The notes under the pieces were generated by a model. That model saw only the letters and a list, made by a program, of their open reading frames with translations. It was not told the DNA's origin and did not search any database. The position numbers and the translations under genes were made by a program. Positions 3,709-42,749 of a DNA stretch of 64,000 nucleotides are shown here, piece after piece. The first letter of the stretch is position 1; the number at the start of each line of letters is the position of its first letter. This stretch comes from Escherichia phage vB_EcoM-RPN242: the sequence record OL656110.1; one strand, written 5' to 3'.

Positions 3709-4236
3709 TCAGATACCGATAAATTCATCAAAAGATCCAACAACCTTCTTCACCGAGATCTTGTCATTCTCAATCAGGAAGTTGCTGTCGTTTTTGGCTG
3801 CTGTGGCCCAGTCATCGGCAAGTTCGTTGCCTTCGTGCCCCGCATGACCCTTAACCCATTTTAGTTCAACATCACAAATTGAACAAACGAGATCATAGAT
3901 TCTGAACAGATCTTTGATGAGTTCAACGTTCTTTTCTGGGAAACCCTGATACTCCCACTTCGCTCGCCATTCGGTGACGCTCTTGATAGCATATTGGCTG
4001 TCAGACCAAATTGTTGCCTTTGGTATTCTGCGCTCACCCTTTCCTGAGAATGCCCACAGTAGCTTCAATGCGTTGGTCACACCCAACAACTCGGCGATAT
4101 TGTTAGTGGACGGGGGAGGTAGATGACCGAAGAACACCTTCCATTGCATACCCGTTATTGGCCTGATGACAAATGCCCATCCTGCGGCCTGGTTGGTCTT
4201 CGGGTTAGAACCCCCGTCAGAATAAATTTCTATCAT
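3709..4236 (-). CDS. ribonuclease HI (RnhA family)
   Basis: Motifs YSDGGS, NNIAEL, IWSDSQY and WVKGHAGHEGNELAD closely match E. coli RNase HI. Start trimmed to the internal ATG (MIEIYSDGG). Confidence 0.8.
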   Translation of the reverse strand: MIEIYSDGGSNPKTNQAAGWAFVIRPITGMQWKVFFGHLPPPSTNNIAELLGVTNALKLLWAFSGKGERRIPKATIWSDSQYAIKSVTEWRAKWEYQGFPEKNVELIKDLFRIYDLVCSICDVELKWVKGHAGHEGNELADDWATAAKNDSNFLIENDKISVKKVVGSFDEFIGI

Positions 4237-4281
4237 GATATAAATATCCCAAACTGGTTTTATAGAAAGAGGAATGAAACT

Positions 4282-5049
4282 ATGGCACCCCGCGCATATC
4301 GTTTCAGTCTCACCGCCCCGCAGATTGAGCAATTGCTCCTCTCTATCTATGATGCTATCAAGTCAGAAGATATCATCTATGATTATGCTGCAGGTGGGAC
4401 TGCTGGACAAGTCGCAGCAGCTTCTGCTGTCAAGAACATGTGGTTGAAGCTCAACGAGATGGTGACAGGCCAAGGTCTCAAAGATGCCATCAACGATGCA
4501 GAAGACAGCAACGTGTTCACCGACTATTATAAGTCTTTACTGGATCGCGAAGGTTGGAAATTTATTGGATCTCCAGCAGATGAACTTCAGCGAGGCGACA
4601 TCGATACCTCGAACTTCAAAGGTGGTGAGGTCATTCTACTTCAGAAGAACGCTTCGGGCAACCCAGAATTCCAATACTGGAAGCGAACCCCTGTTGCTGG
4701 GGGTGATCCTACCTTTGCATGGGCTTCGGTCTATGAAGGGAACTCCAATGATTCCAGCATAGAGATTCCCGTGGTTGGCACCAGCGTACTCAAGGACATC
4801 CCCAAGGCACTCTTCCATATGATCGAGTTCAGAGTGCATGTCTACGATGAGACACTGGGTCATTGGCAAGACACCGACGGGAAGGTAGGGTATCGTGGCG
4901 AGGATCTGATCTACAGTGTATACAACCATATTCAGACCAAACCTCTCGCCACCATTGACTTCAGCCAAGATACGGACAATATGACGGTTTCTGTAACGTC
5001 GTTGGAACCGAATGTCAAGTGCCATCTGTCCTTCGTTGCGGGTTACTAA
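4282..5049 (+). CDS. hypothetical protein (plus-strand gene, diverges from RNase H gene)
   Basis: 255-aa ORF with SD AAGAGGAA 8 nt upstream of ATG 4282; stop overlaps the convergent helicase gene. Confidence 0.6.
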   Translation: MAPRAYRFSLTAPQIEQLLLSIYDAIKSEDIIYDYAAGGTAGQVAAASAVKNMWLKLNEMVTGQGLKDAINDAEDSNVFTDYYKSLLDREGWKFIGSPADELQRGDIDTSNFKGGEVILLQKNASGNPEFQYWKRTPVAGGDPTFAWASVYEGNSNDSSIEIPVVGTSVLKDIPKALFHMIEFRVHVYDETLGHWQDTDGKVGYRGEDLIYSVYNHIQTKPLATIDFSQDTDNMTVSVTSLEPNVKCHLSFVAGY

Positions 5050-6764
5050 ACCTCAAACACGGCATCAGTGAACCAAGCGGGGAAGAACTCTGGGTTGCGC
5101 ATCATCAGTGATTCAAAAGAAGAATCAAGGATGTACGTCGCAGCCCAGTCATTCACACCCCTGACCGAACGCCCACACATCTGAACGATACGCAGTACCG
5201 CCATCCTGAAGTACGCCGATGGGTCCACGCTGTTGACGTGGGCCACCAGAGGATCACCAAGGTAATCATATGGCACCTTGATCAAGATCTGAAATCGACT
5301 ATAATCGCCTTTGAAGTCATACCCCTCTTCCATGGCCGGACTGGCGATGACACAAGGCGTCTTCGTCCTGAACGCGTGTTCCATGATGTCCATCAGAGCC
5401 TTACGAGTACGAGGAACGTGAATCATATTCCGGTACTTACTGAACTTTTGTAGAGCCAGGGCGCGGTCATAACTGACTGTGTGAATGATGCCAGACTGCC
5501 CAGGGTGGAACGCGATAATTTCATCCACGTATTCAGCCAGCTTCTTCATCTCGTAGTCGCCCATGTTCGCTGTCATCTTCATGATGGGCATGTAGTTGAC
5601 TTTCCGGTTCTCAATCGGGATAGGGTTGCCGATCTGTATCTTGTGGTACTCACCCTCGCGGATACCCAGTGACCGGGCGTACGAGTCAATCCCACAAATG
5701 GTAGCCGACATGTGGACGTGGTAGTCACCCTTGCGGAACAGACCGAACTGGGATACATCAGAGGCGATGACAGGCTTGAACTGAATCATACCCTTGTCCT
5801 TCTCCTGTACGATGAAAGTGCTGGCGTTGGTCTGCCCCATGATACCACAGTAGTCGCTGAGGTTGTGAAGATTATCAATAATATCAGACAGCTTCATCAC
5901 CTGGGCTTCAGTCAGGCGCTCGTCCTCTACCAGTTCCTCAAGAGTTTCCAATAGGGCTTCAACCTTGCCATACAGTTCATCAAATATCGCATGCATCTCA
6001 CCAGACAGGGAATACAGCTTGCCCAATTCGTAGTTCTCTGTGCGGATGATGATATCCTTGATGGTCTCCACGATAGGCACTCCCTCGGGGATCGTAAGCA
6101 ACCCTTCCACAGCCTTTATGTTGTATTCCATGATAGTATGCTCTAGGAGCGTAGAGGGCATCTTATGACACTCGTCAAGGATCAGCATATCGGCACGGTT
6201 TTCCGGCTTCATACAAATCGTCGTACACATCTCCACCATCATGGCGGCGTTGGTGCAGCGCAGGGAGGAGACGTCGGTCCACTGTCTACGCGCCTGAACA
6301 TATGGGCAACGATTCTTACTACAGTGGCCATCACGGCATGCCATACGGCACTGAATGGCGTTGTAGTATAGGTCGGGACTGATGTGGCAACGATAGTTCT
6401 TCTTGCCCTTCAGGATGTCTATCGCCACGGCTTTCTCTGCTGCATACTGATCCTGTAAACCTTTGGTCGGCGTCGTGATAGACGTGCGGAACTGACCATA
6501 CGGGTTGTGCTCAAGAACCAAATGGCGAAGCACGTTATGGATGGTAGTGCCGATGAGGGATTTACCTACACCAGTCGGAGCCTCGATGATCACGTGTTTG
6601 AATTTCTTATTCACAAGGGCATCGATGGCTTCAACGATGCATTCCATCTGGCCGGGGTTGGCGGTGTCATACGGGAAGAACTCAGTGGCAAGAGACTTGA
6701 TGCGGTCTATGCTGACTGGTCCGACGCCGTTAAGCGCCTTGGTATATTGGTTGAATGCTGTCAC
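5046..6764 (-). CDS. DinG/XPD (Rad3)-family Fe-S DNA helicase
   Basis: 572-aa ORF with Walker A EAPTGVGKS, DECH box and a Cys cluster between the motor motifs. GTG start preceded by a strong SD AGGAGG at 6 nt spacing. Confidence 0.8.
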   Translation of the reverse strand: MTAFNQYTKALNGVGPVSIDRIKSLATEFFPYDTANPGQMECIVEAIDALVNKKFKHVIIEAPTGVGKSLIGTTIHNVLRHLVLEHNPYGQFRTSITTPTKGLQDQYAAEKAVAIDILKGKKNYRCHISPDLYYNAIQCRMACRDGHCSKNRCPYVQARRQWTDVSSLRCTNAAMMVEMCTTICMKPENRADMLILDECHKMPSTLLEHTIMEYNIKAVEGLLTIPEGVPIVETIKDIIIRTENYELGKLYSLSGEMHAIFDELYGKVEALLETLEELVEDERLTEAQVMKLSDIIDNLHNLSDYCGIMGQTNASTFIVQEKDKGMIQFKPVIASDVSQFGLFRKGDYHVHMSATICGIDSYARSLGIREGEYHKIQIGNPIPIENRKVNYMPIMKMTANMGDYEMKKLAEYVDEIIAFHPGQSGIIHTVSYDRALALQKFSKYRNMIHVPRTRKALMDIMEHAFRTKTPCVIASPAMEEGYDFKGDYSRFQILIKVPYDYLGDPLVAHVNSVDPSAYFRMAVLRIVQMCGRSVRGVNDWAATYILDSSFESLMMRNPEFFPAWFTDAVFEV

Positions 6765-6809
6765 TTTCTTCCTCCTATGGGATTCGCCTTTAGTTTAACC
6801 GATTCCCAG

Positions 6810-6846
6810 GAACGAAAAAGCCGGAGCATTGTACTCCGGCTTTCTC
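6810..6846 (-). terminator. intrinsic terminator after HU gene
   Basis: 9-bp stem AAGCCGGAG/CTCCGGCTT with T-rich flanks on both strands. Confidence 0.55.
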
Positions 6847-6892: not shown

Positions 6893-7171
6893 TTACTTGC
6901 CGTTGGCAGCGTTCTTCAGACCTTCGCCCACTTTGAATTTCACAACGTTTTTCGCCGCGATCTGAATGGTCTGGCCGTTCAGAGGGTTGCGACCTTCACG
7001 CGCTTCTTGGTGTTTCACTTCGAACGCACCGAAGCCAACCAGCTGTACAGATGCGCCTGCAGCAACTGCAGTTTTAACACCGTCGATAAAGGATGCCACT
7101 ACTTTCTCCGCTTCGCCTTTGGTGATATTCTGGGTCGAAGCAATGTGGGCAACAAATTCAGTACGATTCAT
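6893..7171 (-). CDS. HU/IHF-family histone-like DNA-binding protein
   Basis: 92-aa ORF; NRTEFVAHIA...GRNPLNGQTIQIAAKNVVKFKVG matches the HU fold signature (RNP-G-T arm); SD GGAGA. Confidence 0.85.
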   Translation of the reverse strand: MNRTEFVAHIASTQNITKGEAEKVVASFIDGVKTAVAAGASVQLVGFGAFEVKHQEAREGRNPLNGQTIQIAAKNVVKFKVGEGLKNAANGK

Positions 7172-14796: not shown

Positions 14797-15004
14797 TGTT
14801 CTCTTCGCCTTGTGCGTAAGGGTTAAGTTCAGACTCATCAGCGGCTTCGATGCGCGTCTTTACAGAGTCCAGCATATTGTTGATAAACTCACGAGACTGC
14901 TCCAGCTGAGCCAAGAGCACATCCTTTGGAGCATAGTTCTGAATGCAAGCCGGAATACTTTCAGACGTCGCCTTCAGGTCGGTAAAACATTCTTTCAGTA
15001 TCAT
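14789..15004 (-). CDS. hypothetical protein
   Basis: 71-aa ORF; its end overlaps the vWA gene start by 8 nt; weak SD. Confidence 0.45.
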   Translation of the reverse strand: MILKECFTDLKATSESIPACIQNYAPKDVLLAQLEQSREFINNMLDSVKTRIEAADESELNPYAQGEENND

Positions 15005-15086
15005 TTGATCTCACTTAACAGAGACGACACCCTGTTGGGATTTAATAGCGGTCTTCACGCGCCAGGGGTGATAGAATCACCGTAGA

Positions 15087-15320
15087 TCAGGCCGATGTGC
15101 TCATCCAACAGGAAGTGCCCAGTTTCAAAGATCTCCCACAGGCGCTGGATAGAGCCAACCGCTTCTGAACGTCTGATGATTTGATGTGAGCATCAATCAC
15201 CACGTTCTGAACATGGCCGATAGGGATACCAGATTTTTGAATCTTGATATGTTCCTCACCACCTGGGAAGGTGAAGTGTTTGTAGAACACATCTTGGTCG
15301 TTCAATTTCAAACGAAACAT
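15087..15320 (-). CDS. hypothetical protein (possible frameshifted gene continuing to about 15055)
   Basis: 77-aa ORF with SD GAGGT; the C-terminal 27 aa are low-complexity while another frame carries a more protein-like continuation. Confidence 0.4.
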   Translation of the reverse strand: MFRLKLNDQDVFYKHFTFPGGEEHIKIQKSGIPIGHVQNVVIDAHIKSSDVQKRLALSSACGRSLKLGTSCWMSTSA

Positions 15321-15428
15321 AATGTAACCTCATGGTGTATTGTACAGCCGTATTATACTGTGATGTACAAATTGAAACGCCCAGCATTTACGCTGGACGT
15401 TATTGATATTGAAAAGGTTTTGACAAAC

Positions 15429-15662
15429 TCAGGATTTGGAGGAAGCGCCCTTCCATGTCTGACGTTTGTAGTGGGAAGCCATGGCCATCGACCCGGCGTA
15501 TTGCGTTTCACCCCTGACCACCACAGCCACAACCAGCTTATGTCGTAACAGGAAGTCCAGACCTGACTTAGACGGGATATCGCCAATGCTCAGTGGACCA
15601 CGATTGTACAGGGCATACATGGTGTCAAGCGCCGCCCCGGTAAAGATAATCTCTTTAGACAT
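15429..15662 (-). CDS. hypothetical protein
   Basis: 77-aa ORF from the internal ATG (MSKEIIFTG...). Confidence 0.4.
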   Translation of the reverse strand: MSKEIIFTGAALDTMYALYNRGPLSIGDIPSKSGLDFLLRHKLVVAVVVRGETQYAGSMAMASHYKRQTWKGASSKS

Positions 15663-15669
15663 GGCGGTC

Positions 15670-15975
15670 TCACTTAAACGAGTCAACGATGGATGTAAGA
15701 ATTTCGGGGGTGGGTTTGGCGTCTTGTGGTTCACGGAAACCCACCTTTGCGATGCGGCCCAAGACATTGTACACTTCGCGCGGAAGGGTGTCTACGACCG
15801 TGTCCGACATGAACGCCACGTCTTCTTGGATGGCGTTGTATTCGGCCAGTTTAGCCAGTTCTGATTCTACCAGGGACTTCAGCTTTTGCAATGGGTCGTT
15901 GCAATAGTTGAGACGGTTGCAGTTGGTGAGCGCCTGAGTTAGATTCTCAAACGCTTCTTGTATTTCCTTTGACAT
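15670..15975 (-). CDS. hypothetical protein
   Basis: 101-aa ORF from ATG 15975 with SD GAGG (track start is an upstream TTG). Confidence 0.45.
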   Translation of the reverse strand: MSKEIQEAFENLTQALTNCNRLNYCNDPLQKLKSLVESELAKLAEYNAIQEDVAFMSDTVVDTLPREVYNVLGRIAKVGFREPQDAKPTPEILTSIVDSFK

Positions 15976-16357
15976 TGATATGTGCCTCGTATTGTTGACA
16001 GACAACAACTACTTTACGGCACATGTCGATATCGAACAAGCCAATATGACACTCACGCTTCTTTATCCCCAGCTTATGCGCCAGCCAACTATAAGCGTCG
16101 CTCCTGCTCCTCTCTCCGCTTTTCCACAATGGGTCAAACGATCTATGGGCTTCCTGCTTAGCAGCACGGAGAGCGGCATTCGCCATCCTTCCCAAAGGTT
16201 GTCTGCCGTCGCCATGGGTATGGCAACCGACACGGGCATCACATGGAGTGCACACCCAGAACTTCAGATTGCGGAGGTCAGGGCGATGAGGGTAGAGAAC
16301 ATCACCACCGACGAATTCGGCTGGGAGGCCGCAGTAATCACAAATGACAGGTTTCAT
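15947..16357 (-). CDS. Cys-rich zinc-ribbon protein
   Basis: MKPVICDYCGLPAEF...VCTPCDARVGCHTHGDG carries paired Cys motifs; the track start is a GTG, trimmed here to the ATG. Confidence 0.5.
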   Translation of the reverse strand: MKPVICDYCGLPAEFVGGDVLYPHRPDLRNLKFWVCTPCDARVGCHTHGDGRQPLGRMANAALRAAKQEAHRSFDPLWKSGERSRSDAYSWLAHKLGIKKRECHIGLFDIDMCRKVVVVCQQYEAHINVKGNTRSV

Positions 16358-18966: not shown

Positions 18967-19896
18967 TTATTCAGAAGAACCATATCGTTCTGTCCATTTA
19001 GGACATTTCAAAGGTTCCCACCCTCTATTGAAACGTTCGATAATGCTGTTTGTCGCATTAAAAGCCTTCAGGTCTTTTGTTCTGTACACATGCATGAGGG
19101 CTTCCGCTCTTTTCATTGTTTTTATTGCTTCAAGGAATTTATCAGCTTTTGACCAATACGCATCATTGTCGGGGTTCCATTTACCCTTCTCCCAAGGCAT
19201 CTTAGCCAACATGCCTTTCTGAGCGTTTTCTTTCTGTTTGGCGCGTTGCTCTGGTGTGAATGAGTTGGTTAAGTCCTTCCCATAATTGGGATTGAGTTCC
19301 CCAAGTTTAGCTTTACTGGCACGTTCAGAAAATTGTTCTAAATCTATGTTGGCGCGGCGTTTCTCTAAAACCCGCCTTTTATATTCAGGATCAGAAGCCA
19401 TCCTTTCATGGATTTTCATCAATCCTTTGGTAATTTTCTTGACTTGCTCTGGGGTTCTCTTATATCCATATTGGGGATTATTCTTTCCTCTTCTCCCATA
19501 CATTGGGTTGTTTGCCCCGACGCATTTGGAGACACCCTTTGTGAGTTTGGATATTCTTTGTCCAAATTCTTTCCTTAACTTTTCGTAAAGGTGAGAATTA
19601 AATTTTATACCCGTTGGTGTATACCTACCCCCACGGCTCATCAAAAGAACAGCATATACCATATCAGAATTCGGGAAAGCCAAGGCCAAGCATACATGGA
19701 CAAGATAATGTTGTCTGCCTGTTAATCGAACCAAATTTATCTTATCTTTAGAATATTCAGGGAACATGCTCTTGGGAAGGATGTGGTGCAATTCAGTGTA
19801 GTCACCATCAGAATATTTGAAAGATTGAACCATCATCAAATACTTCTTGATGAAATGCGGTTTACCGCCTTTAGAAATCAATAATTCGTAAAACAT
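18967..19896 (-). CDS. HNH homing endonuclease with NUMOD-like repeats (free-standing)
   Basis: HNH core TELHHILPKSMFPEYSKDKINLVRLTGRQHYLVH plus repeated NPMYGRRGKNNPQYG motifs; sits between core genes. Confidence 0.8.
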   Translation of the reverse strand: MFYELLISKGGKPHFIKKYLMMVQSFKYSDGDYTELHHILPKSMFPEYSKDKINLVRLTGRQHYLVHVCLALAFPNSDMVYAVLLMSRGGRYTPTGIKFNSHLYEKLRKEFGQRISKLTKGVSKCVGANNPMYGRRGKNNPQYGYKRTPEQVKKITKGLMKIHERMASDPEYKRRVLEKRRANIDLEQFSERASKAKLGELNPNYGKDLTNSFTPEQRAKQKENAQKGMLAKMPWEKGKWNPDNDAYWSKADKFLEAIKTMKRAEALMHVYRTKDLKAFNATNSIIERFNRGWEPLKCPKWTERYGSSE

Positions 19897-19955
19897 AACA
19901 GGAACTCCAAATGAAAGTTCCTGTTATAATATACTTTCTTAACTCACAAAGTAAG

Positions 19956-21149
19956 TTACTTTTTAAATAAATTTAGTAGGTTTTTAGAACCAGATGTCGC
20001 TTTAGGTTGTCCTTCCCCATCGTATCCAACCTTCCCGCGCGGTTTTTTACCTTGCTGTACAGCCTCTACACAACGGGTATATTTCTGAAGTTCACAAAAC
20101 ATATTTTCTCCTGCCATTATATTTAAATGGCGATCCCAAGGCTCTTCCACAGACCAAAATTCTTCCCTGTTATACCCAAGAGGACCATAAACTGCGTCCT
20201 GGTTGTCCCGTAGCCAGAAGATGCATTCTTCGTGGGTCATACCGTCTTTGTTCAGGAACAGCAGATCAATACCTGCGCGACAGCCTGGTCCAGCAACCGT
20301 GAAGTGGTTCTCACTGAAAGGATATTCAGGAATGTAAGTGAAGTCTACCCAGATCTGATAGGCCAGGAATGGACCAAGCCCTTCGATGTCGTCATACATG
20401 CGCTGGTATACTTCCAAAGGAGTACCAAGGCGCAGCAGGTCATGGAAATAATTTGGATACTTGTTGACGAATGCCTTCAGGGAGCGGATGACACGCATTG
20501 GCATGTACGGTTCCCAACCTTCGATGGTGTAGAAGTCCGGCTCTGCTTCGGCTATCGCCTTGGCTTCTTTATAATCCATGTTCTGGGTTGAACCGTCTTT
20601 ACAGATCAGATTCACCATCATCCCACCGAAGCGCTGCTCCTTGTGGTTGACAACCATCTCAGGGAAAGCCAGGCATTGCTTCAGGCCGCCCGTGTTGAAG
20701 GCATTGGTGAATACCTTACCGCCGTCGGCCTCGAACTTCTGAAGTCGTTCGCGGGTTGCATCGAGGTTGATCTCGGCGAATTCTTTGATCGTCATCGCGC
20801 CGCCGATAGCCTGGATTGGATCCCAGAGGTTGAACATGCGGAACATCACGCAGTTGAACATCTTGTCGGCCATACCCAGAGCATCGTTGTTGACAATGTT
20901 GTTGATCAGGTTGAGAGACTGCCTGTCGTGCTCTCTCCGGACATTACAGAACTTGACCTGCCGTAGTATGGGATTATCAGTCCAAGGAGCAGGAAGGCGC
21001 TGGACGTCCTTCTTGACGTGGATCTGATAACGATCGCGCATCCATTCGTAAGACAGGCGGGTATGGGTCGGACTGAGAACCGGTTTGGCCGACTTTATCT
21101 TTTCTTCACGGACACCGCAGTACGGGACGTCTAGGGCTTTATCTTTCAT
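19956..21149 (-). CDS. hypothetical protein (397 aa)
   Basis: ORF with good SD AGAGGA 5 nt upstream; no assignable motif. Confidence 0.65.
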   Translation of the reverse strand: MKDKALDVPYCGVREEKIKSAKPVLSPTHTRLSYEWMRDRYQIHVKKDVQRLPAPWTDNPILRQVKFCNVRREHDRQSLNLINNIVNNDALGMADKMFNCVMFRMFNLWDPIQAIGGAMTIKEFAEINLDATRERLQKFEADGGKVFTNAFNTGGLKQCLAFPEMVVNHKEQRFGGMMVNLICKDGSTQNMDYKEAKAIAEAEPDFYTIEGWEPYMPMRVIRSLKAFVNKYPNYFHDLLRLGTPLEVYQRMYDDIEGLGPFLAYQIWVDFTYIPEYPFSENHFTVAGPGCRAGIDLLFLNKDGMTHEECIFWLRDNQDAVYGPLGYNREEFWSVEEPWDRHLNIMAGENMFCELQKYTRCVEAVQQGKKPRGKVGYDGEGQPKATSGSKNLLNLFKK

Positions 21150-25128: not shown

Positions 25129-25500
25129 ATGAAACAGTTCGTAGGTTTATACGCAGTCGGGTGTAGTAAGCCAGACGCCAACCTCACCACAGGTCAATTT
25201 ATCACAGGCACCCCAGTTTATCTGACACAGCTGGCGTCAGACAAGAACTTACCATCGGAACCGCGATTTGTCCCCCTTGGCTTGATGACAGGCCTGAAAG
25301 TTGGTCTGTATGTCGGCGTTGTGACGTTTGAAAACGGCATCGAAGCGAAGGTTCTGCCATTCAAATTGGGTAGTGAACAAATGCTGAAGGATACGATCAG
25401 TGAACACCTGAACTCACAATGTCTGGCTTCTCTGGATAAATTGTTCGGCGTAGTATCTGATGAAGGCGAGGCCACCCCCGCCTATGTGAATCAAGATTAA
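25129..25500 (+). CDS. hypothetical protein (plus strand; possible lipoprotein)
   Basis: 123-aa ORF with SD GAGAG; N-terminus MKQFVGLYAVGC carries a lipobox-like AVGC. Confidence 0.55.
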   Translation: MKQFVGLYAVGCSKPDANLTTGQFITGTPVYLTQLASDKNLPSEPRFVPLGLMTGLKVGLYVGVVTFENGIEAKVLPFKLGSEQMLKDTISEHLNSQCLASLDKLFGVVSDEGEATPAYVNQD

Positions 25501-27005
25501 TCGTGATTACCCAGCGCCACCTTCATGAACTCCACAGGGTGGCGCTCTGCCAGGTAAAACTTGTAACGCTCATGAGAGTGCCTAAGAGCGTGGTTCGTGC
25601 TGGCGTTATACGATGCATCATCCACTAAGTCCCATATCCACGCGACGTCCTTAGAGGAGTGCTGACGCATCAGACGACCCAATGTCTGTATGACGCGGAT
25701 ATATGACTTGCTCGGGTGTGCCAGTACAAGGTGGTGTAGCTTCTTGATCGACACTCCCTGCTGCATTGTCCCGTATGATGCCAACAGGGTGATGTCCTCT
25801 CCATCCTCCATCGCTTTCTGTATGCGGCGGCGGTCTTCGATCTTCACTTCCCCGTTGATGACAAACACGTTGGGCTTGACTGCGCTCAGCATATCATACA
25901 CGACCATCATGTGACCATCAATACGCTCGAACATGATGGCCACGTTTCCTTTCAGATTCAGTGCCATCTTGGCGATCAGTTCGTTGCGGGACTGGTGTGT
26001 AATAAGGTATTCTATTTCCTTGGAATAATCCCCGTCTAGACCAACAGCATCCGCCGGAGTGTGCTTCAGCTGGATCATCTTCACTTTGATGTCAGTGGCG
26101 TACCCGAGATTGATAAGATCGCGAGCCGTGATGATCTTATGGTACGCCCCGAAGTGAGCCACCACCTGAAGCCCGGCAACTTTGGTGTTCGCCAGCGTAC
26201 CTGTAACCCCCAGGCGCTGGTCGGCATAGATGCAGTTGTTCAGGATGTAAGACAGTTTCTCAGACTTGGAGGTGTGCACTTCATCCACCACGATATCACC
26301 GAACTGGTGGAACCATTCCTTCGGCTGGTCTTGAATGCCCTGCCATGTGCTGATGACGATTGGTTTGCTGATCTCCTTTGTCGCGCCCTCAAAAATCAGC
26401 TGGGTGTTAACAACGGGCTTCCAATCACTGCCATGAGCATACTCTTCGAAGTTGTCGTACAGCTGAGTGACTAGGTGGATTGACGGCACCACGATAAGCG
26501 TCTTCAGAGGACTTTCGAGAGCTTCTCTGCGCCGCCTGTAGTACCGCGCCATGACATACAGAATAAAGGACTTACCGGCACTCGTAGCCAGTTCACAGAC
26601 GCATCTGGTTTGACGCATAGCCTTGGCGATGGTGTCGTATTGGTAGTCACGAGTCTCGGCATCGATATATTCGTGATTTTCGGTGCGGATCTTTGGATGC
26701 AGACTGTCGATGAAGTCACGGATTTCTTCATCTGGGATGTCCTGAATGTACTTCAGTGCCGGATCCAGTTCAATGGTGTATCCGTTGTTCTTACAGAACT
26801 TAAATACCTCAAACAGCAGACCGATATCGATTAGACCAGATGACTTGGTAAATAGGCGGACAACCCCGTCCCATTTAGAAAAGGGGTTGGGAACGAAGTT
26901 CGGGTCTTCGAATTTGAAGTAGTCATTAAGTTCTTCCCTGATAGAAAGATCTGCGATGCAACGCATGCGGACTTCGTTAACCTTAACAATCTGAATGTCT
27001 GCCAT
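25497..27005 (-). CDS. uvsW: UvsW-like SF2 helicase
   Basis: Walker A ELATSAGKS, DEVH box and helicase C-terminal motifs; start trimmed to the ATG with SD GGGAGA. Confidence 0.8.
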   Translation of the reverse strand: MADIQIVKVNEVRMRCIADLSIREELNDYFKFEDPNFVPNPFSKWDGVVRLFTKSSGLIDIGLLFEVFKFCKNNGYTIELDPALKYIQDIPDEEIRDFIDSLHPKIRTENHEYIDAETRDYQYDTIAKAMRQTRCVCELATSAGKSFILYVMARYYRRRREALESPLKTLIVVPSIHLVTQLYDNFEEYAHGSDWKPVVNTQLIFEGATKEISKPIVISTWQGIQDQPKEWFHQFGDIVVDEVHTSKSEKLSYILNNCIYADQRLGVTGTLANTKVAGLQVVAHFGAYHKIITARDLINLGYATDIKVKMIQLKHTPADAVGLDGDYSKEIEYLITHQSRNELIAKMALNLKGNVAIMFERIDGHMMVVYDMLSAVKPNVFVINGEVKIEDRRRIQKAMEDGEDITLLASYGTMQQGVSIKKLHHLVLAHPSKSYIRVIQTLGRLMRQHSSKDVAWIWDLVDDASYNASTNHALRHSHERYKFYLAERHPVEFMKVALGNHD

Positions 27006-27030
27006 ACAAAATCTCCCAAGGATTATGGGG

Positions 27031-27037
27031 TATTTAG
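27031..27037 (-). promoter_or_regulatory. late-promoter-like motif CTAAATACCCC upstream of uvsW
   Basis: Minus-strand CTAAATA about 25 nt upstream of the start codon; T4 late consensus is TATAAATA. Confidence 0.45.
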
Positions 27038-27780
27038 TGATCCGGCCAGACTCCGTTTTGTTCTTTATCCATGCGATGATACAGACGAACACGCTCAAAC
27101 ATCTTTGTCAGAATGTCATCACGGTTGAACTCAATGACGGTTGGTAGAGGGGAAGACTCGTTGGCGATCACGTTGATGAGGCGGGTGATCTTGACGCCGA
27201 ACATCTGCTGGAACATGACCGAATATAAGCACAGCTGGATACTGTAATCCTCGATCATGCCCCGCGTCTTCATGGTGTTCGATGTCTTGAAGTCGATGAC
27301 AGCAGGTTTACCCTCATAAACCCCGATAAGGTCTACACGACCTGCAAGACCAAGCACCTCACTATATAATGGGATCTCCTGAGCATAGATCTTTGTCATC
27401 TTGTTCAGGTAAGGGAACAGCTGCTTGAACATGAACATGTATTCGCCAGCCGCTTCCAACACTTCTTTCATTGGGCGGTTCTTTAGATACAGTTCACACG
27501 CAAGGTGCAGCTTCTCCCCTCGGTCAGCACAGCGCATGGTCTCAAGATCAGCGGCCTCTGCGCCCAGCTTCTTCCTCCAAGACTCAAGCCATTCATGATC
27601 TCCAGTGCGTCCCAGCATAGTCGTGACGGATGTCAGTTTTACACCAGACGGTGAAACGTAATGACGACCATTCTCCGTCGTAACACACTCCAGTTCCTTA
27701 TGAGGAAGTTCGTATTGCTGGAATGTGTAATGACGGTTTTCGAAGTCATTCAGCTTGCGTAGATCCTGGAGAGATGCCAT
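27034..27780 (-). CDS. PD-(D/E)XK exonuclease-like protein (YqaJ/lambda-Exo-like)
   Basis: GRVDLIGV...AVIDFKTS...YSIQLCLY fits the D...(D/E)xK...QxxxY nuclease motif; SD GAGGA. Confidence 0.55.
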   Translation of the reverse strand: MASLQDLRKLNDFENRHYTFQQYELPHKELECVTTENGRHYVSPSGVKLTSVTTMLGRTGDHEWLESWRKKLGAEAADLETMRCADRGEKLHLACELYLKNRPMKEVLEAAGEYMFMFKQLFPYLNKMTKIYAQEIPLYSEVLGLAGRVDLIGVYEGKPAVIDFKTSNTMKTRGMIEDYSIQLCLYSVMFQQMFGVKITRLINVIANESSPLPTVIEFNRDDILTKMFERVRLYHRMDKEQNGVWPDH

Positions 27781-32653: not shown

Positions 32654-34126
32654 TTAGTTCAAGACATATTTGATCAGTCCACAATTCCAAATCCTGACCA
32701 ACCCGGCTTCGGTTGCTAACTGGCTTTCTGTTTTGCCTTCTACGTCATACCCCATGCGAGCAAATGAACCTTTTCTGAAACCGAATTTGTGCTCACGCAT
32801 AAATGTGCCAGGCTTGTGATATTTGTAGTCTGGCTTCTGTACTTCCTCTTCTATGAATCCGTGGGATAGGTAAATGTTGGACAACCTGCTTACAACACAC
32901 CTATCCCCAAAGGAATAGATTTTGGTGTCGGCAAATTTTCTTCTGAAGTGTGAAAGAAGTTTACTGAATGCCCCGTGGCAATCATTAGAGGCAAATCTGA
33001 CTAATTCCAGGCCATCTTTCCTTTTAGTGAATAGCATCACGGCTTGTATGACCCCACTCTTGTCAATTAACGATAAATGGTGGGTGGAAGAAACGGAACC
33101 TTGTATGTGGTGGTTGTCTAAAAACTCCCTCAAGCCGCTTATATTTCCCCAAACGACTTTGTGTTGGCGAGCATATGACGCAGGCGTTTTAATGCCAAGT
33201 TTAGCTTTCAGAAGAGATTTGACCACTTCCTGTTTCTCAACCCATTCATCTTCCCAGATGTGGATCAACTGGATACCCTGAGATTCACATATTTCAGTCT
33301 TTTCCAGGTGATAATATTTCTCTTTAAAAACTTCTGAATGCCAGTACAGGCCATTAAATTCAATCGCCAATTTGTGTTCAGGGCAATAGATATCCAGTTG
33401 TTTACCGGATAATATACTGTAATCAGAAACAGTGTTTACAACTCCCATTGAGGTGAGAAACTCGGATATTTCCTTTTCATAAGAAGATTTCTTGTTCCTG
33501 ATAGAACCATTGCTGAACAACGCACGTTTTAGTATGTTCGAGTTTTTCATAGGGTTGTCAACACCATAACGTTCTTGTAACGTTGCCAACGCCTTCTCCC
33601 TCACACCAGGTAATTGTAGTGTGGAGCAGCTTCCGTATTTGGATATATTCGAAGTCTCTATGGCTTTCCGACCAATCCCACCTTTACACATAGAAACCTG
33701 ATAACATTCTTCAGAACAATATGTTCTGTAATCTTTATTATTGATATAAAAGTTGGTTTCCTTGGAACACACCGGGCATATTTTCACGGTTCTATTGTAC
33801 AGCCAAGCTGTGACTTTACAAGCCAAATCTTGTAGGGTGTTGTGGGTATTGGCGAACGCTAAAAGGTCTACATTGATGTGCTTCATAAGCAGTTCAGATT
33901 TGCATTTTTGGATATCCAATTTGTTGTTCTTGGTAAACATATATTTGTAGAAAAATTGGCGATATGATTCCTCGTCAGACAATTCATTCACTGCTTCAAG
34001 GAAACCTTCCGGGAGGTTCTTTAGGGTGTTCGATGCGAAGGTCTTGCAAGCATCTGAACAAAATTTCTTATCTTTCCTGGATGCTTTGAACTGTTCATGG
34101 CAGACACTACAGATTACCTGATACAT
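32654..34126 (-). CDS. zinc-ribbon plus restriction-endonuclease-like (Vsr/DUF559-type) protein; putative free-standing homing endonuclease
   Basis: N-terminal CxxC pairs; C-terminal LAIEFNGLYWHSE...IHIWEDEW resembles the Vsr/PD-(D/E)XK core. Strong SD GGAGGAGA upstream of ATG 34126. Inserted just downstream of the major capsid gene. Confidence 0.45.
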   Translation of the reverse strand: MYQVICSVCHEQFKASRKDKKFCSDACKTFASNTLKNLPEGFLEAVNELSDEESYRQFFYKYMFTKNNKLDIQKCKSELLMKHINVDLLAFANTHNTLQDLACKVTAWLYNRTVKICPVCSKETNFYINNKDYRTYCSEECYQVSMCKGGIGRKAIETSNISKYGSCSTLQLPGVREKALATLQERYGVDNPMKNSNILKRALFSNGSIRNKKSSYEKEISEFLTSMGVVNTVSDYSILSGKQLDIYCPEHKLAIEFNGLYWHSEVFKEKYYHLEKTEICESQGIQLIHIWEDEWVEKQEVVKSLLKAKLGIKTPASYARQHKVVWGNISGLREFLDNHHIQGSVSSTHHLSLIDKSGVIQAVMLFTKRKDGLELVRFASNDCHGAFSKLLSHFRRKFADTKIYSFGDRCVVSRLSNIYLSHGFIEEEVQKPDYKYHKPGTFMREHKFGFRKGSFARMGYDVEGKTESQLATEAGLVRIWNCGLIKYVLN

Positions 34127-34170
34127 AATTATTCTCCTCCATATGGTATCTAGTATAACCTGTTCGATAA

Positions 34171-34204
34171 TATGAACAAATAAAAACCCCGCCGAAGCGG
34201 GGTT
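34171..34204 (-). terminator. strong intrinsic terminator after major capsid gene
   Basis: AACCCCGC-cgaa-GCGGGGTT followed on the minus strand by TTTTTATTTG. Confidence 0.7.
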
Positions 34205-39503: not shown

Positions 39504-40037
39504 TTAGAGAGACTTGTCTGAGATGGCCTGGAAGTAACGCAGGTCAACAGTGAACTGAGTATAAGAGTCCATTGCAGACATGTCCAGTTCCAGCTGACCG
39601 AGGTTCTGAGGCCAGGCACCCTGAAGGGTCCAGGTCTTGGTGACGTTGTCATTCGCATCCAACAGTTCCATGATTACATCACGGAAATAATCATCTGGGT
39701 TAGCAGACGCACGGTTGTTGTTGCTGCCGTTGATATACTGCTGCCAGACTTCGAATGCGTTGTACGGGGCGTTGTCCACGACGTTGATGAACGTCACAGG
39801 CAGAGCCTCGAAGCGGCGGTCACCTGGGAATGGAAGTTCACGACCACCCCATGGGACGAGTATTTCCCCGAGCTGGCCTGTTGGGGTATTTGTGGTCACC
39901 GCCAACAGCGAAACATCACGGATAGTATCGCTTCCAGCCACGAAGGAAGGGAAGTTAACAGTCACACGCCAACGGTGTTGGCGCTGAACGCCACCCCCGC
40001 GTGACATAGCTGCTCTGAATTCATTAACTGTAGCCAT
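39504..40037 (-). CDS. 19: tail tube protein (T4 gp19-like)
   Basis: 177 aa; C-terminal GAWPQNLGQLELDMSAMDSYTQFTVDL parallels T4 gp19 GLWPTNVGELQLDWDSNNEIQTFEVTL. Confidence 0.8.
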   Translation of the reverse strand: MATVNEFRAAMSRGGGVQRQHRWRVTVNFPSFVAGSDTIRDVSLLAVTTNTPTGQLGEILVPWGGRELPFPGDRRFEALPVTFINVVDNAPYNAFEVWQQYINGSNNNRASANPDDYFRDVIMELLDANDNVTKTWTLQGAWPQNLGQLELDMSAMDSYTQFTVDLRYFQAISDKSL

Positions 40038-40057
40038 TATAGATTCTCCAGAAAGAG

Positions 40058-40771
40058 TTACACAATTCTAATTAGCTGCCAACCCGTCGTGTTCAAACGC
40101 TCTGCGGTCGCAGTTTTCCTATGATACACAGACGGTGGTGGAACTGGAATACCCTTGTCGATGTAATCATAGAGTGCTGAATATTTAAGTCCCAACCTCT
40201 CCACGTATTCGCGACAATTCCCGTGGATTTCGTATTCTTCGCCGGATGGAGATACCAATTTGAATCGCTTGGCATGACCGTTGTTCTTGCCCTTTCTGAT
40301 TCCAGTTTCAATGCATTTTCGACTAAATGATAATTTACCTTCTTCTTTCCATTCAACCCCGATCCGACAGCTAATGATTTCTCCTGTTTTCCACCGTGGA
40401 TCATCGCAATCAACTAAACCGAGATGTTCACCAGTAGAAGTCAAAACTGCTCCGTGTTTATTGGAAAATGTGGACCCGTCTCCACCCCAGGTCTTGTTGT
40501 ACCCTTTCTGAGTTGACATGTGGGTTCCGTGTTGCTTTATAAGAATGATTTCCAATTCTTTTAGATCTTCCAGGGATTTGGTCTGGGCTAACACTTGAAC
40601 AGAAAAGGACTCTTCTCCGTACTTTCTTATTGCTTGGTGAATAAAGTAATCAGATCCCTTCTGAGCACTATTGCAGTGCTCCCACCACCTTTGCATAGGG
40701 TCTCTCGTCGTTATCCCAATATAGGCTTTCTGATTGACTAGATTTGTAATTTTGTAAACACTTCCGATCAT
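40058..40771 (-). CDS. GIY-YIG homing endonuclease (free-standing, between tail tube and sheath genes)
   Basis: N-terminal GSVYKITNLVNQKAYIGIT...RWWEH is a classic GIY-YIG module; 237 aa. Confidence 0.8.
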   Translation of the reverse strand: MIGSVYKITNLVNQKAYIGITTRDPMQRWWEHCNSAQKGSDYFIHQAIRKYGEESFSVQVLAQTKSLEDLKELEIILIKQHGTHMSTQKGYNKTWGGDGSTFSNKHGAVLTSTGEHLGLVDCDDPRWKTGEIISCRIGVEWKEEGKLSFSRKCIETGIRKGKNNGHAKRFKLVSPSGEEYEIHGNCREYVERLGLKYSALYDYIDKGIPVPPPSVYHRKTATAERLNTTGWQLIRIV

Positions 40772-40853
40772 TTCGATGCTCTCTCAGTAAAATCGTTCCA
40801 TTTTAACCCGCGAGAGACCATTGAAATGCCCTCCGAAGAGGGCATGGGGTAAA

Positions 40854-42749
40854 TTAAGAAGCGGCTACGATACCACCACCGGATTCGATCTCACTGAATT
40901 CCATGTCTGGACGCACGGAAGCAAAATCAAGATACACCCAATTTATACTGTACTCTGGTTTCAGCCAGATACCCGCGACCATGGTGTTGGCTGCGATAAC
41001 ATCAGCGGTGTTGTTGTCCTCGTCACACTTCACCATCCCGTCATAGATCGCGCCCATGTTGGCCAACTGGCGGATATATGGGCGGACAGCGTTGCTGAAC
41101 AACCCACGAGTGAATGCATCGTTGTTCTCACCAAGGTAGTATTTGGCGATGGCTGCGATATTCTGCTCTGCCATAATGAACAGACCACGAACGTTGATGC
41201 GGTCGAACGCAGATGGGCGGGTCAGGCCAGTCTTGTCGCCGTACAACACGATGCCTTCGTTGGAGAAGGTGACGATGCTGTTGATCTGGTTGCGATACAG
41301 CACAGCACGCTCATCAGAAGACGCAGACCACGCCATTCGATTATAGTTGTTGTATTTACCACGGTTGTGGAACGCCGGAGATTTGTAGATACCCGCGATT
41401 TCAATGCTTCGCGCCCAAACACCTGCGGTGCCGCCACAAGCCGGAATCCAACGCATTTTGTCGTTGTACTTGTCGTACACATACGCCCAGTTGTCATCCA
41501 TGAAGAAGTAGGAGGAGTCGCGAACAAGGCTTTCACGCCAGGCCACAACATCATCCATCTCACGGCCACGGTTTCCGACGACCGTATCGCGAAGAGGAGA
41601 CACGAAGGACACTGTGTCTTTACGCTCGGTGGACAGGTCGATCAGTGCCTGCTGCTCAATCAGTTCTTCACAGAAACCGAACACTGGCTTGGCATCATAC
41701 GCTTCGGCGTTGTTCAGTGCCTGGATAGCCGCAACACGGTTCCCAGTGTAATCGTCTACACCACCTTCGAGTTCAATCACACCAGCAGCCAGGGTAGTGG
41801 CGAAGGTGTACACCCAATTTGAGGTGCCGTTGATCACGTCTTTGAAGTACGCATTGGATCCATCAGATTTCTTAGAACCCTGAGCGGTCTGCACCAGTTC
41901 ATACTTCTCGATGATCGTACCGGAAGCACCAACAGTTGTGACGGCAGCGGTGGCAGTCAGACCATTCGCGTCTGGAACAATCGCAGTCGCAGCCTGAGGA
42001 CCGATTGCTTTGTGAGTGACGGTGACGGTGTTGGACTTCACGACAACAGAAGAATACACGTCAGACAGGGACGTCAGCGCGGTTCCGATCTTTGTCGCCA
42101 GAGTCGCCGGGGTGTCAGCGTCAGTGTACGCCACGGCTTCACCAGCAACAGAGATGGAACCAGCAGCGGTGGCAGTACCGGATACAGAGATACGATCAAC
42201 CTGACTAACAGCGCCAGAAGAGTCGGTAATGCGACCTACTTTGTCAACGATGGCGATATGGTACTCGCCATCCTGTGGAGCATATGCGAAGTTGTTACGG
42301 AATTCCCAGGTCGGGAACAGCGCAGCATCACAGATGTTCACAGCAATGTCGTTACCCAGAGAGCCAGCATAGCGGCCTGTCCAGGTAATAGACGCAGATG
42401 GGGACGCAGTTTCGAAGTCTAGTTTGTTGCGGATAAGGATTGCAGTCTGACCTTTGGTTACAGCGTTGCGTGCCGCCGGACCGACCACACGGGTCACCCA
42501 TGCAACAGAGCTGTAAGACAGGAAGTCAGCAATCACCAAGAAGTCGGTGGCAGTTGCATCGTTTGGCTTGAAGAATTTCTTCACCAGACCAGTTTCGCCA
42601 CCAGTGACCAACACAGGGAGTTCTGCTTCACCCCATTGGAATTTGCCGACAGTCGCACCCTGAACAACAACGGATGGAGACGTCTGAAGCGTGGCATCAC
42701 GCTCAGTCCACTGTACGGACGGCGCAACGCTGAAGCTTTGAGTTGCCAT
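40854..42749 (-). CDS. 18: tail sheath protein (T4 gp18-like)
   Basis: 631 aa from ATG 42749 with SD AAGGAA; CTAAATAT motif about 45 nt upstream; at the gene 18 position. Confidence 0.85.
   Translation of the reverse strand: MATQSFSVAPSVQWTERDATLQTSPSVVVQGATVGKFQWGEAELPVLVTGGETGLVKKFFKPNDATATDFLVIADFLSYSSVAWVTRVVGPAARNAVTKGQTAILIRNKLDFETASPSASITWTGRYAGSLGNDIAVNICDAALFPTWEFRNNFAYAPQDGEYHIAIVDKVGRITDSSGAVSQVDRISVSGTATAAGSISVAGEAVAYTDADTPATLATKIGTALTSLSDVYSSVVVKSNTVTVTHKAIGPQAATAIVPDANGLTATAAVTTVGASGTIIEKYELVQTAQGSKKSDGSNAYFKDVINGTSNWVYTFATTLAAGVIELEGGVDDYTGNRVAAIQALNNAEAYDAKPVFGFCEELIEQQALIDLSTERKDTVSFVSPLRDTVVGNRGREMDDVVAWRESLVRDSSYFFMDDNWAYVYDKYNDKMRWIPACGGTAGVWARSIEIAGIYKSPAFHNRGKYNNYNRMAWSASSDERAVLYRNQINSIVTFSNEGIVLYGDKTGLTRPSAFDRINVRGLFIMAEQNIAAIAKYYLGENNDAFTRGLFSNAVRPYIRQLANMGAIYDGMVKCDEDNNTADVIAANTMVAGIWLKPEYSINWVYLDFASVRPDMEFSEIESGGGIVAAS

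Follow-up and report, generated by a model that had tools for sequence, protein, structure and literature searches.

The closest described relatives of the helicase reported here belong to the XPD/DinG superfamily. E. coli DinG (PDB 6FWR/6FWS), its top PDB sequence match, is encoded by an SOS gene and has been proposed to displace RNA polymerase or unwind R-loops (PMC3378879). E. coli YoaA, an XPD/Rad3-like Fe-S helicase paired with the clamp-loader subunit chi (HolC), is a small, replisome-linked member of the DinG family (PMC9826845). The superfamily also includes archaeal and eukaryotic XPD/Rad3 proteins (2VL7, 3CRV, 9P55; human XPD in TFIIH) and CasDinG (Csf4) of type IV CRISPR-Cas, whose Fe-S domain is vestigial (PMC10450177). 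A different enzyme provides the functional comparison: the T4 replication fork passes bound RNA polymerase with the help of Dda (PMC7140857), an SF1B 5'-3' accessory helicase.

The gene studied here lies in a 64,000-nt window, the whole stretch of DNA that was analysed, from an Ackermannviridae phage (Aglimvirinae; ViI-like) approximately 98-99% identical to Escherichia phage PC3. The list of open reading frames places a 572-aa frame at 5046..6764 on the minus strand, confirming the coordinates of the initial annotation, which had given no strand. The gene and its helicase features are as follows.

5046..6764, minus strand: helicase CDS, complete, 572 aa plus TAG stop; XPD/DinG-superfamily helicase, PHROG 2488
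5048-5046, minus strand: helicase stop codon TAG
6648..6677, minus strand: Q-motif region, residues 30-39 (FPYDTANPGQ); F30, G38 and Q39 invariant in the alignment
6558..6581, minus strand: motif I / Walker A, residues 62-69 (APTGVGKS); P63, G65, G67 and K68 kept in 119/119 relatives
6165..6176, minus strand: motif II / Walker B DECH, residues 197-200; D197, E198 and H200 in 119/119, C199 in 110/119
5760..6152, minus strand: predicted Arch-domain insertion, approximately residues 205-335, between motifs II and III (AlphaFold model, structural matches)
5070..5372, minus strand: Helicase_C_2 match, residues 465-565, including motif VI QxxGRxxRG (Pfam)

The product of 5046..6764 is a Rad3/XPD/DinG-type SF2 DNA helicase with all motifs intact, an assignment that is well supported. 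Helicase_C_2 (PF13307) matched residues 465-565 with 46.7 bits (cut-off 25.3), ResIII and DEAD also matched in Pfam, and PHROG 2488, 'DNA helicase', aligned residues 19-572 with positions 3-579 of its 579-position profile (E 2.1e-258). Motif VI (QMCGRSVRG) retained Q528, G531, R532, R535 and G536 in all 119 relatives. Residues 19-39 were conserved across the family, with G38 kept in 117 and Q39 in 118 of the 119 members of the wider relative set. Together with the DinG matches in sequence and predicted fold, the Helicase_C_2 and PHROG 2488 results bear out the Rad3-family call made in the initial annotation. DEAD_2 (PF06733) was absent from the Pfam matches of the phage protein at E <= 0.1 and was carried by a single listed homologue (P0061), the N-terminal half of the phage helicase being too divergent or too compact for this model.

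In the AlphaFold model (pLDDT 89, pTM 0.87), the predicted fold contains the four XPD/DinG domains, namely HD1, a Cys-rich insertion, an Arch domain and HD2. The modelled Arch insertion consists of a long helical hairpin (H255-279, H286-311) plus strands. The best Foldseek matches were DinG (E 1.4e-25), Finegoldia magna DinG, XPD and CasDinG, and the matches to DinG and XPD spanned the full length of the phage helicase.

The relationship to each described system is nevertheless distant. DinG and YoaA were the top NCBIfam matches, both partial only: the DinG equivalog (NF008729) reached 66 of the 598 bits required, and the second-best match, the YoaA equivalog (NF053712), 55 of 680 (E 5.7e-15). 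Identity to the DinG proteins of E. coli and F. magna (9KQH) is just 16-18%; the phage protein is approximately 140 residues shorter than DinG, and it belongs to a lytic phage rather than to an SOS regulon. The Rad3 subfamily model TIGR00604 gave 23.2 bits against a cut-off of 246.95, DEAD_2 was not detected, as noted above, and the phage protein has no TFIIH or NER context. The replisome-linked accessory role of YoaA resembles the one proposed below for the phage helicase, but YoaA has chi as a partner and none is known in the phage. One PADLOC typeIV_DinG profile matched the phage helicase (E 4e-51), which reflects relatedness and not CasDinG membership; the profile might describe Rad3/DinG proteins in general. 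The vestigial Fe-S domain ascribed to CasDinG contrasts with the four invariant cysteines found here, and no cas genes were annotated in the relatives' neighbourhoods of the helicase. The short-DinG class ('sDinG') of a DinG review was also considered and found inapplicable, since sDinG proteins have no Fe-S domain and degenerate ATP-binding motifs.

The initial annotation had described a Rad3-family helicase with a Cys cluster as unusual among T4-type replication genes, on the ground that T4 uses Dda and UvsW. This is correct relative to T4 itself, but the phage is not strictly T4-type; it belongs to the Ackermannviridae, where the helicase is universal. The contrast with T4 also holds in part. 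A UvsW-like helicase gene coexists in the same window (25497..27098), so that UvsW is not replaced, whereas Dda has no detectable homologue: tblastn with T4 Dda gave best E values of 0.47 for the genome of Kuttervirus bering, 0.66 for PC3 and 1.0 for the window. Genes resembling gp41 and gp59 are present in the near-identical PC3 and in bering. Because gp41-, gp59- and UvsW-like genes are present and Dda is missing, we propose from genome content that the phage helicase may be the accessory 5'-3' helicase of replication and recombination machinery resembling that of T4. There it would remove R-loops, RNA polymerase or other roadblocks, or process recombination intermediates. The genes near it include one for RNase HI and those resembling Mre11/Rad50 (gp47/46). 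The likeness to Dda is a functional analogy only. Both proteins are monomer-sized, predicted to move 5'-3' and found with a T4-like replication gene set; however, Dda belongs to another superfamily, has no sequence similarity to the phage helicase and carries no metal cluster. A Dda-like role is tentative, its chances falling somewhat short of even. The genes and signals around the helicase are as follows.

6893..7171, minus strand: HU/TF1-like DNA-binding protein gene, directly upstream (Pfam Bac_DNA_binding, E 6e-30)
6817..6843, minus strand: GC-rich hairpin plus T-run, terminator of the upstream HU-like gene (terminator scan; Salmonella phage Marshall annotation)
4282..5049, plus strand: convergent 255-aa gene, phrog_3833, 'structural protein' in relatives
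3709..4332, minus strand: RNase HI-type gene, downstream (Pfam RNase_H, E 7e-25), annotated in relatives as a 528-nt CDS

The adjacency of the HU-like and helicase genes is conserved in Ackermannviridae, and the terminator hairpin that divides them is kept in relatives, with compensatory changes. At the other end, the stop codons of the convergent gene and the helicase overlap by 4 nt (CTAA, 5046-5049), as likewise annotated in Marshall, PC3, bering and others. A sigma-70 scan returned no convincing promoter. A candidate promoter motif, the block TTCGGGTAAACTATA that lies between terminator and ribosome-binding site, is conserved in relatives, but its repeats in the window do not exceed chance and it was rejected. 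An Rfam scan of the 64,000-nt window gave no matches.

The same neighbourhood bears on a second reading, in which the helicase acts mainly in recombination and repair with the neighbouring gp46/47 (Rad50/Mre11-like) nuclease, in end processing or on D-loops, and not as a fork helper. The gp47/gp46-like genes lie approximately 2 kb away both in Ackermannviridae and in Vibrio phage K452, where the order helicase ... RNase H - gp55 - SbcD also recurs, and cellular DinG, YoaA and XPD function in repair (PMC3378879). However, the convergent structural gene, the RNase H gene and gp55 intervene before gp47, so the helicase and gp47 do not form one operon. In distant relatives the neighbours are instead a portal or dCMP deaminase gene: of 77 distant viral loci, 26 had a portal homologue and 13 a dCMP deaminase no more than 4 kb away. 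Nothing at these 77 loci was common with the Ackermannviridae helicase context; a conserved functional partner was rejected, and context is therefore weak functional evidence. Fork and recombination roles are also not exclusive, as recombination is coupled to replication in T4-like phages. We regard a mainly recombinational function as rather unlikely, though a reading to be taken seriously.

The cysteines of the Cys-rich insertion are as follows.

6306..6389, minus strand: predicted minimal 4Fe-4S domain, residues 126-153; four Cys kept in 119/119 relatives
6387-6389, minus strand: C126 codon
6348-6350, minus strand: C139 codon
6336-6338, minus strand: codon of the clade-specific C143
6321-6323, minus strand: C148 codon
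6306-6308, minus strand: C153 codon

The Cys cluster noted in the initial annotation is real: 9 of the 14 cysteines of the helicase fall within residues 126-199, and a 74-residue window as rich occurred in only 12 of 20,000 permutations. The invariant pattern, C-x12-C-x8-C-x4-C, covers 28 residues between motifs Ia and II, against a Cys span of 86 residues in DinG (hhalign numbering). Among 80 distant viral relatives, approximately 25% identical to the phage helicase, each of the four cysteines was kept in 67-77 and they were jointly lost in approximately 10. In the hhalign alignment, C126, C143, C148 and C153 were paired with C120, C194, C199 and C205 of E. coli DinG, in its ligand region, and the PDB sequence match likewise aligned a C-x4-C-x4/5-CP(Y/F)..ARR pattern. 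The second ligand is ambiguous, since C139 is the family-invariant residue, whereas DinG C194 has C143 as its counterpart in the alignment; in this respect the phage family differs from DinG. The CPYxxxR sequence at the last cysteine resembles CPFFVARR of DinG, and Y155, R159 and W162, C-terminal to that cysteine, are invariant. Judged from sequence, a genuine Fe-S cluster in the phage helicase is probable. By comparison with the family, the cysteines would carry a 4Fe-4S cluster, for which the phage would rely on the Isc/Suf machinery of its host, and the domain would act as a strand-separating wedge to which Y155, R159 and W162 may contribute.

The four invariant cysteines might instead hold zinc or form a structural site, with no 4Fe-4S cluster, in a protein that would still be an XPD/DinG-fold helicase. 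The Cys insertion, at just 28 residues, is far smaller than in solved family members, and the model has its lowest pLDDT (74-79) there; vestigial Fe-S domains also occur in some family members, such as CasDinG (PMC10450177). Against this stand the location of the site between motifs Ia and II, which is the position of the Fe-S domain in the family, and the CP(Y/F)xxxR(R) context of the last cysteine, which is also that of the family domain. Moreover, CxxC knuckles are typical of zinc sites and the spacing here contains none. The all-or-none loss of the cysteines would suit any metal site and does not discriminate between zinc and Fe-S. On these grounds, we consider a zinc or structural site distinctly unlikely and a 4Fe-4S cluster the preferred reading.

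The helicase is ordinary within its family. PHROG 2488 is a core Ackermannviridae gene that is already annotated; PC3 and Marshall carry a CDS of the same length (1719 nt) labelled 'DNA helicase' or 'ATP-dependent helicase'. Homologues comprised 176 matches at the nucleotide level and 497 phage records at the protein level. Our literature search found no work on phage Fe-S, DinG or XPD helicases, and a review of the Ackermannviridae did not mention helicases. This distribution also speaks to the idea that the helicase handles or discriminates the hypermodified thymidine DNA of the phage (5-NeOmdU in ViI-like phages). Homologues do occur in ViI-like phages, Delftia phage phiW-14 and Acinetobacter phage SH-Ab 15599, and hypermodified thymine has been reported for these three phage groups (PMC5889632, PMC13458397). 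However, 54 Pseudomonas and 9 Bordetella records carried a homologue of the 5-hmdU kinase, and neither host is among the main groups of the helicase, which in turn is present in phages of Rhizobium, Halorubrum, Haloarcula and Prevotella, not among the main groups of the kinase. The hypermodification papers mention no helicase. Because the two distributions differ outside Ackermannviridae and their Vibrio relatives, the link was rejected and is very improbable.

The remaining question concerns the translation start, for which the following elements were read from the sequence.

6762..6764, minus strand: GTG start codon, the first start past the in-frame TAA at 6795-6797
6771..6776, minus strand: Shine-Dalgarno AGGAGG, with a 6-nt spacer (AAGAAA) to the helicase GTG

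The claim that the gene starts at GTG with no in-frame ATG nearby was upheld. No in-frame ATG, GTG or TTG occurs between the upstream TAA (6797-6795) and the GTG or in codons 2-39. An in-frame ATG first appears at codon 40, directly 3' of the Q motif's invariant G38-Q39, and a start there would lose conserved sequence. In the alignment, the GTG and the GGAG core did not vary across 7 Ackermannviridae lineages whose flanks averaged only 69% identity, and Marshall is annotated with an identical 1719-nt CDS and the same ribosome-binding site. The GTG start is thus conserved across enterobacterial Ackermannviridae behind a strong ribosome-binding site; in Tedavirus and Vibrio relatives, ATG takes its place at the equivalent upstream position. 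Translation from the codon-40 ATG or another site, with GTG a mere annotation convention, is extremely improbable: it is favoured only by the rarity of GTG starts (2 of 61 annotated CDSs in the equivalent stretch of PC3), and it is opposed by the position of that ATG right behind the Q-motif GQ, the family conservation of residues 19-39, the lack of a ribosome-binding site ahead of it when AGGAGG precedes the GTG by 6 nt, the invariance of the GTG across diverged lineages and the upstream start of the ATG-initiated relatives. The rare start codon would probably keep helicase expression low. An RNA structure sequestering the ribosome-binding site was rejected, as its fold energy was no better than that of shuffled sequences (z -0.59). 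We hold the identity and start codon of the helicase to be very likely correct; when the Fe-S cluster is added, the three together remain probable.

These elements can be combined into a broader model, which is speculative and, as a whole, unlikely. The Ackermannviridae and large myoviruses related to them would have a T4-like replisome in which Dda has been replaced by a minimal Fe-S helicase of the XPD/DinG type, its cluster domain just 28 residues long. This helicase and the nearby RNase HI would together remove RNA polymerase and R-loops, core phage DNA replication would depend on host Fe-S assembly and on the iron or redox state of the host, and the GTG start would keep the enzyme scarce.

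The basic picture of the gene is unchanged by this analysis, as it is a recognisable helicase that was annotated already. If the model is true, it would show that an unrelated helicase superfamily can occupy the Dda slot of T4-like replisomes. If the cluster is real, PHROG 2488 would offer an unusually small Fe-S domain for the study of cluster function in XPD/DinG helicases, and a core replication or recombination enzyme of the ViI/CBA120-like phages, a group widely used in therapy and biocontrol, would depend on host iron-sulfur biogenesis. Such dependence might give the host a point of control or make these phages sensitive to their environment.

The initial annotation had placed a DinG/XPD-type helicase at 5046-6764. 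These limits were exact, and the gene lies on the minus strand, as listed below together with the other features of the window.

Features of the helicase gene and its surroundings
3709..4332, minus: RNase HI-type gene (Pfam PF00075, E 7e-25)
4282..5049, plus: convergent 255-aa gene (phrog_3833) downstream of the helicase, "virion structural protein" in relatives
6764 (GTG) to 5048-5046 (TAG), minus: helicase ORF, 572 codons
5109..6698, minus: helicase residues 23-552, matched by PADLOC profile PDLC01439
6764, minus: GTG start codon, read from the sequence
6776-6771, minus: AGGAGG, followed by a 6-nt spacer and the GTG
6797-6795, minus: in-frame TAA 5' of the GTG, read from the sequence
6785..6800, minus: block TTCGGGTAAACTATA (window: TCGGTTAAACTAAAG) between terminator and RBS, columns ~113-127 of the start-region alignment of Ackermannviridae lineages
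6817..6843, minus: conserved hairpin terminator after the HU/TF1-like gene
6893..7171, minus: HU/TF1-like DNA-binding gene immediately upstream of the helicase (Pfam Bac_DNA_binding, E 6e-30)
25497..27098, minus: UvsW-like SF2 helicase (Pfam UvsW_N)

Pfam detected Helicase_C_2 (46.7 bits; cut-off 25.3), ResIII, and DEAD in the helicase, and DEAD_2 was undetected. The phage family PHROG 2488 ("DNA helicase") matched from end to end (E 2e-258). The best solved relative by sequence was E. coli DinG, whose C-x4-C-x5-CPFFVARR aligned locally with C-x4-C-x4-CPYVQARR of the helicase. A confident AlphaFold2 model built with 30 diverse homologues (pLDDT 89, pTM 0.87) showed the four-domain XPD/DinG fold and the Arch insertion typical of the family between motifs II and III. 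The motor motifs are intact. The top Foldseek match in the PDB was again E. coli DinG (E 1.4e-25, TM 0.67), the other top matches being F. magna DinG, T. acidophilum XPD, human XPD, and CasDinG. Pfam, PHROG 2488, the DinG alignment, and Foldseek thus back the DinG/XPD-type identity first proposed, and the protein genuinely belongs to the XPD/Rad3/DinG superfamily. Matches to the NCBIfam equivalogs for DinG and YoaA were partial and far below threshold (66 bits, cut-off 598, and 55 bits, cut-off 680, respectively), and the Rad3 model scored 23 bits (cut-off 247). The helicase represents a separate phage family that is not orthologous to DinG, YoaA, or XPD. The PADLOC profile PDLC01439, "typeIV_DinG (CAS-IV-A; associated)", matched over the full length (E 4e-51), far better than the curated DinG and YoaA models. 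This match probably reflects a broad DinG/Rad3 profile; alternatively, some type IV-associated DinGs may be close to the PHROG 2488-type family. Membership in CasDinG was rejected because the context lacks cas genes and the cysteines are kept, and membership in the "sDinG" class because that class lacks Fe-S.

The helicase region shared 99.1% identity with Escherichia phages PC3 and PH4 (Ackermannviridae, Aglimvirinae) and 92-98% with Ag3, SKML-39, Marshall, and Maynard. PC3 matched the whole window at ~97-98.7% identity, with a few indels. Four stretches (14800-15992, 18974-20023, 32914-34183, and 40037-40854) did not align in this otherwise 97-99% identical comparison; they probably reflect gain or loss (indels) of homing endonuclease genes or variable genes. 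Salmonella phage Marshall carries an identical-length CDS labelled "DNA helicase", with its RBS and upstream terminator also annotated, so public annotation already covers the gene, along with its start and generic function; some database entries label relatives "Rad3-related DNA helicase" or "DinG". A literature search found no paper characterizing a phage Fe-S XPD/DinG helicase. The protein is a new, uncharacterized phage representative of a well-known type of helicase, with pre-existing generic annotation.

Nucleotide comparison found homologues in 176 records, and protein comparison found them in 497 phage records. Represented were every Ackermannviridae genus sampled, Vibrio phages, Delftia phiW-14, Acinetobacter SH-Ab 15599, Rhizobium/Sinorhizobium T4-superfamily phages, haloarchaeal tailed viruses, Prevotella phages, and Bacillus phage G. 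Kuttervirus bering and PC3, whose genomes are complete, encode gp41-like primase-helicase, gp59-like loader, gp61, gp32, gp43, clamp, clamp loader, UvsX/UvsY, and gp46/47. In tblastn searches, T4 Dda gave best E values of only 0.47 (bering), 0.66 (PC3), and 1.0 (window). The claim that such a helicase is unusual beside the Dda and UvsW of T4 holds in part: Dda is missing, whereas the 497 phage records and the UvsW-like gene in the window speak against it. In the annotation of relatives, the UvsW homologue adjoins genes for an exonuclease and a UvsY-like protein.

Judging from this gene content, the helicase would supply accessory 5'-3' helicase activity, the job of Dda in T4. For E. coli DinG, a proposed function is the clearing of R-loops or RNA polymerase from the path of forks (PMC3378879). 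The adjacent RNase H, a true RNase HI type unlike the FEN-like T4 RNase H, fits this R-loop theme and is weak evidence for it. It is followed by genes for a gp55-like late sigma factor and a gp47/SbcD-like nuclease. A serious alternative is that the helicase works mainly in recombination with gp46/47; the recombination and fork roles are not mutually exclusive.

The reported Cys cluster was borne out, with 9 of the 14 cysteines lying within residues 126-199; a 74-residue window was equally Cys-rich in only 12 of 20,000 permutations. When the query was compared with 118 full-length homologues (35-99% identity), C126, C139, C148, and C153 were each Cys in 119/119, and Y155, R159, and W162 after the last cluster Cys were invariant or nearly so. 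C143 occurred in 42/119, restricted to enterobacterial Ackermannviridae. Of 80 relatives from viral metagenomes, most of them 24-28% identical, 67-77 had Cys at any one of the four positions. About 10 of these 80 (IMG/VR) had C126, C139, and C148 replaced together (S/T, L, H), the all-or-none pattern that a single metal site would predict; they form an Fe-S-less offshoot analogous to CasDinG. Helicase motifs are retained in these ten or so (e.g., L049 and L025, among the IMG/VR loci L018-L094). Profile alignment paired C126, C148, and C153 with C120, C199, and C205 of DinG. We infer that the helicase binds an Fe-S cluster, a zinc or purely structural site being a minor rival for the same cysteines. 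The partner of DinG C194 was C143, which is clade-specific, rather than the invariant C139. Either residue could be the second ligand, since in the model they are separated by a single turn of helix H137-144. The ligands of the presumed Fe-S site span only 28 residues versus 86 in DinG (same numbering), so that the domain is notably compact here. The cluster known from the helicase superfamily is needed for unwinding and is dispensable for ATPase activity and ssDNA binding (PMC3378879). Outside the Fe-S region, C357 in motif III (HMSATICG; 5694..5696, minus) is a fifth near-invariant Cys (118/119), unconserved in distant relatives.

The minus-strand sequence 5' of the helicase start reads ...CCCATAGGAGGAAGAAAGTGACAGCA... 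The GTG start after AGGAGG proposed in the initial annotation was upheld, the first in-frame ATG being codon 40, with no in-frame ATG, GTG, or TTG other than the start ahead of it. An internal start is not credible from the sequence, because codon 40 directly follows the invariant G38-Q39 (Q motif) and the PHROG and family alignments extend N-terminally at least as far as residue 19. The GTG and the GGAG core were invariant across seven Ackermannviridae lineages (the window, Marshall, bering, Klebsiella cp18, Erwinia Ea2809, Dickeya DP23.1, and Serratia IME250), with flanks averaging only 69% identity. Phages of this type rarely use GTG to start a gene (2 of 61 annotated CDS in the corresponding section of PC3). 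The more distant Tedavirus phiA8-29 and Vibrio K452 have ATG at the equivalent upstream position. An RBS-occluding structure was unsupported at this start (z -0.59). A weak conserved start codon combined with a strong SD suggests, speculatively, selection for limited expression.

The terminator stem upstream is maintained through compensatory changes across Ackermannviridae genera. Block TTCGGGTAAACTATA may be a phage promoter, given its conservation in Kuttervirus, Taipeivirus, and Limestonevirus. Further copies in the window did not exceed chance, and a repeated promoter motif was rejected on this ground; an Rfam element in the window was also rejected. The HU/TF1-like gene, "transcription factor 1" in some records, recalls the hmU-DNA-binding TF1 of SPO1. 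A specific tie of the helicase to thymidine hypermodification was rejected. Downstream, the stop codons of the helicase and the phrog_3833 gene overlap in CTAA (5046-5049) with no terminator between the two genes, an arrangement kept in every Ackermannviridae record examined. The phrog_3833 gene is the sole plus-strand gene within a long minus-strand block. Marshall has a GIY-YIG homing endonuclease between RNase HI and gp55, absent in the window and PC3. In Vibrio phage K452 the helicase is again followed by RNase H - gp55 - SbcD after a gap, an order that distant viral contigs do not show; conservation of the genomic context does not extend beyond Ackermannviridae-like phages. In 26 distant contigs (L024, L031, L034, L035, and 22 others) a portal-protein homologue lies within 4 kb of the helicase, and in 13 others (L021-L023 and 10 more) a dCMP deaminase homologue adjoins it.

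The points of some value are the deeply conserved GTG start, the very compact putative Fe-S domain, the apparent substitution of the helicase for Dda, and the implied reliance of a core phage function on host Fe-S assembly.
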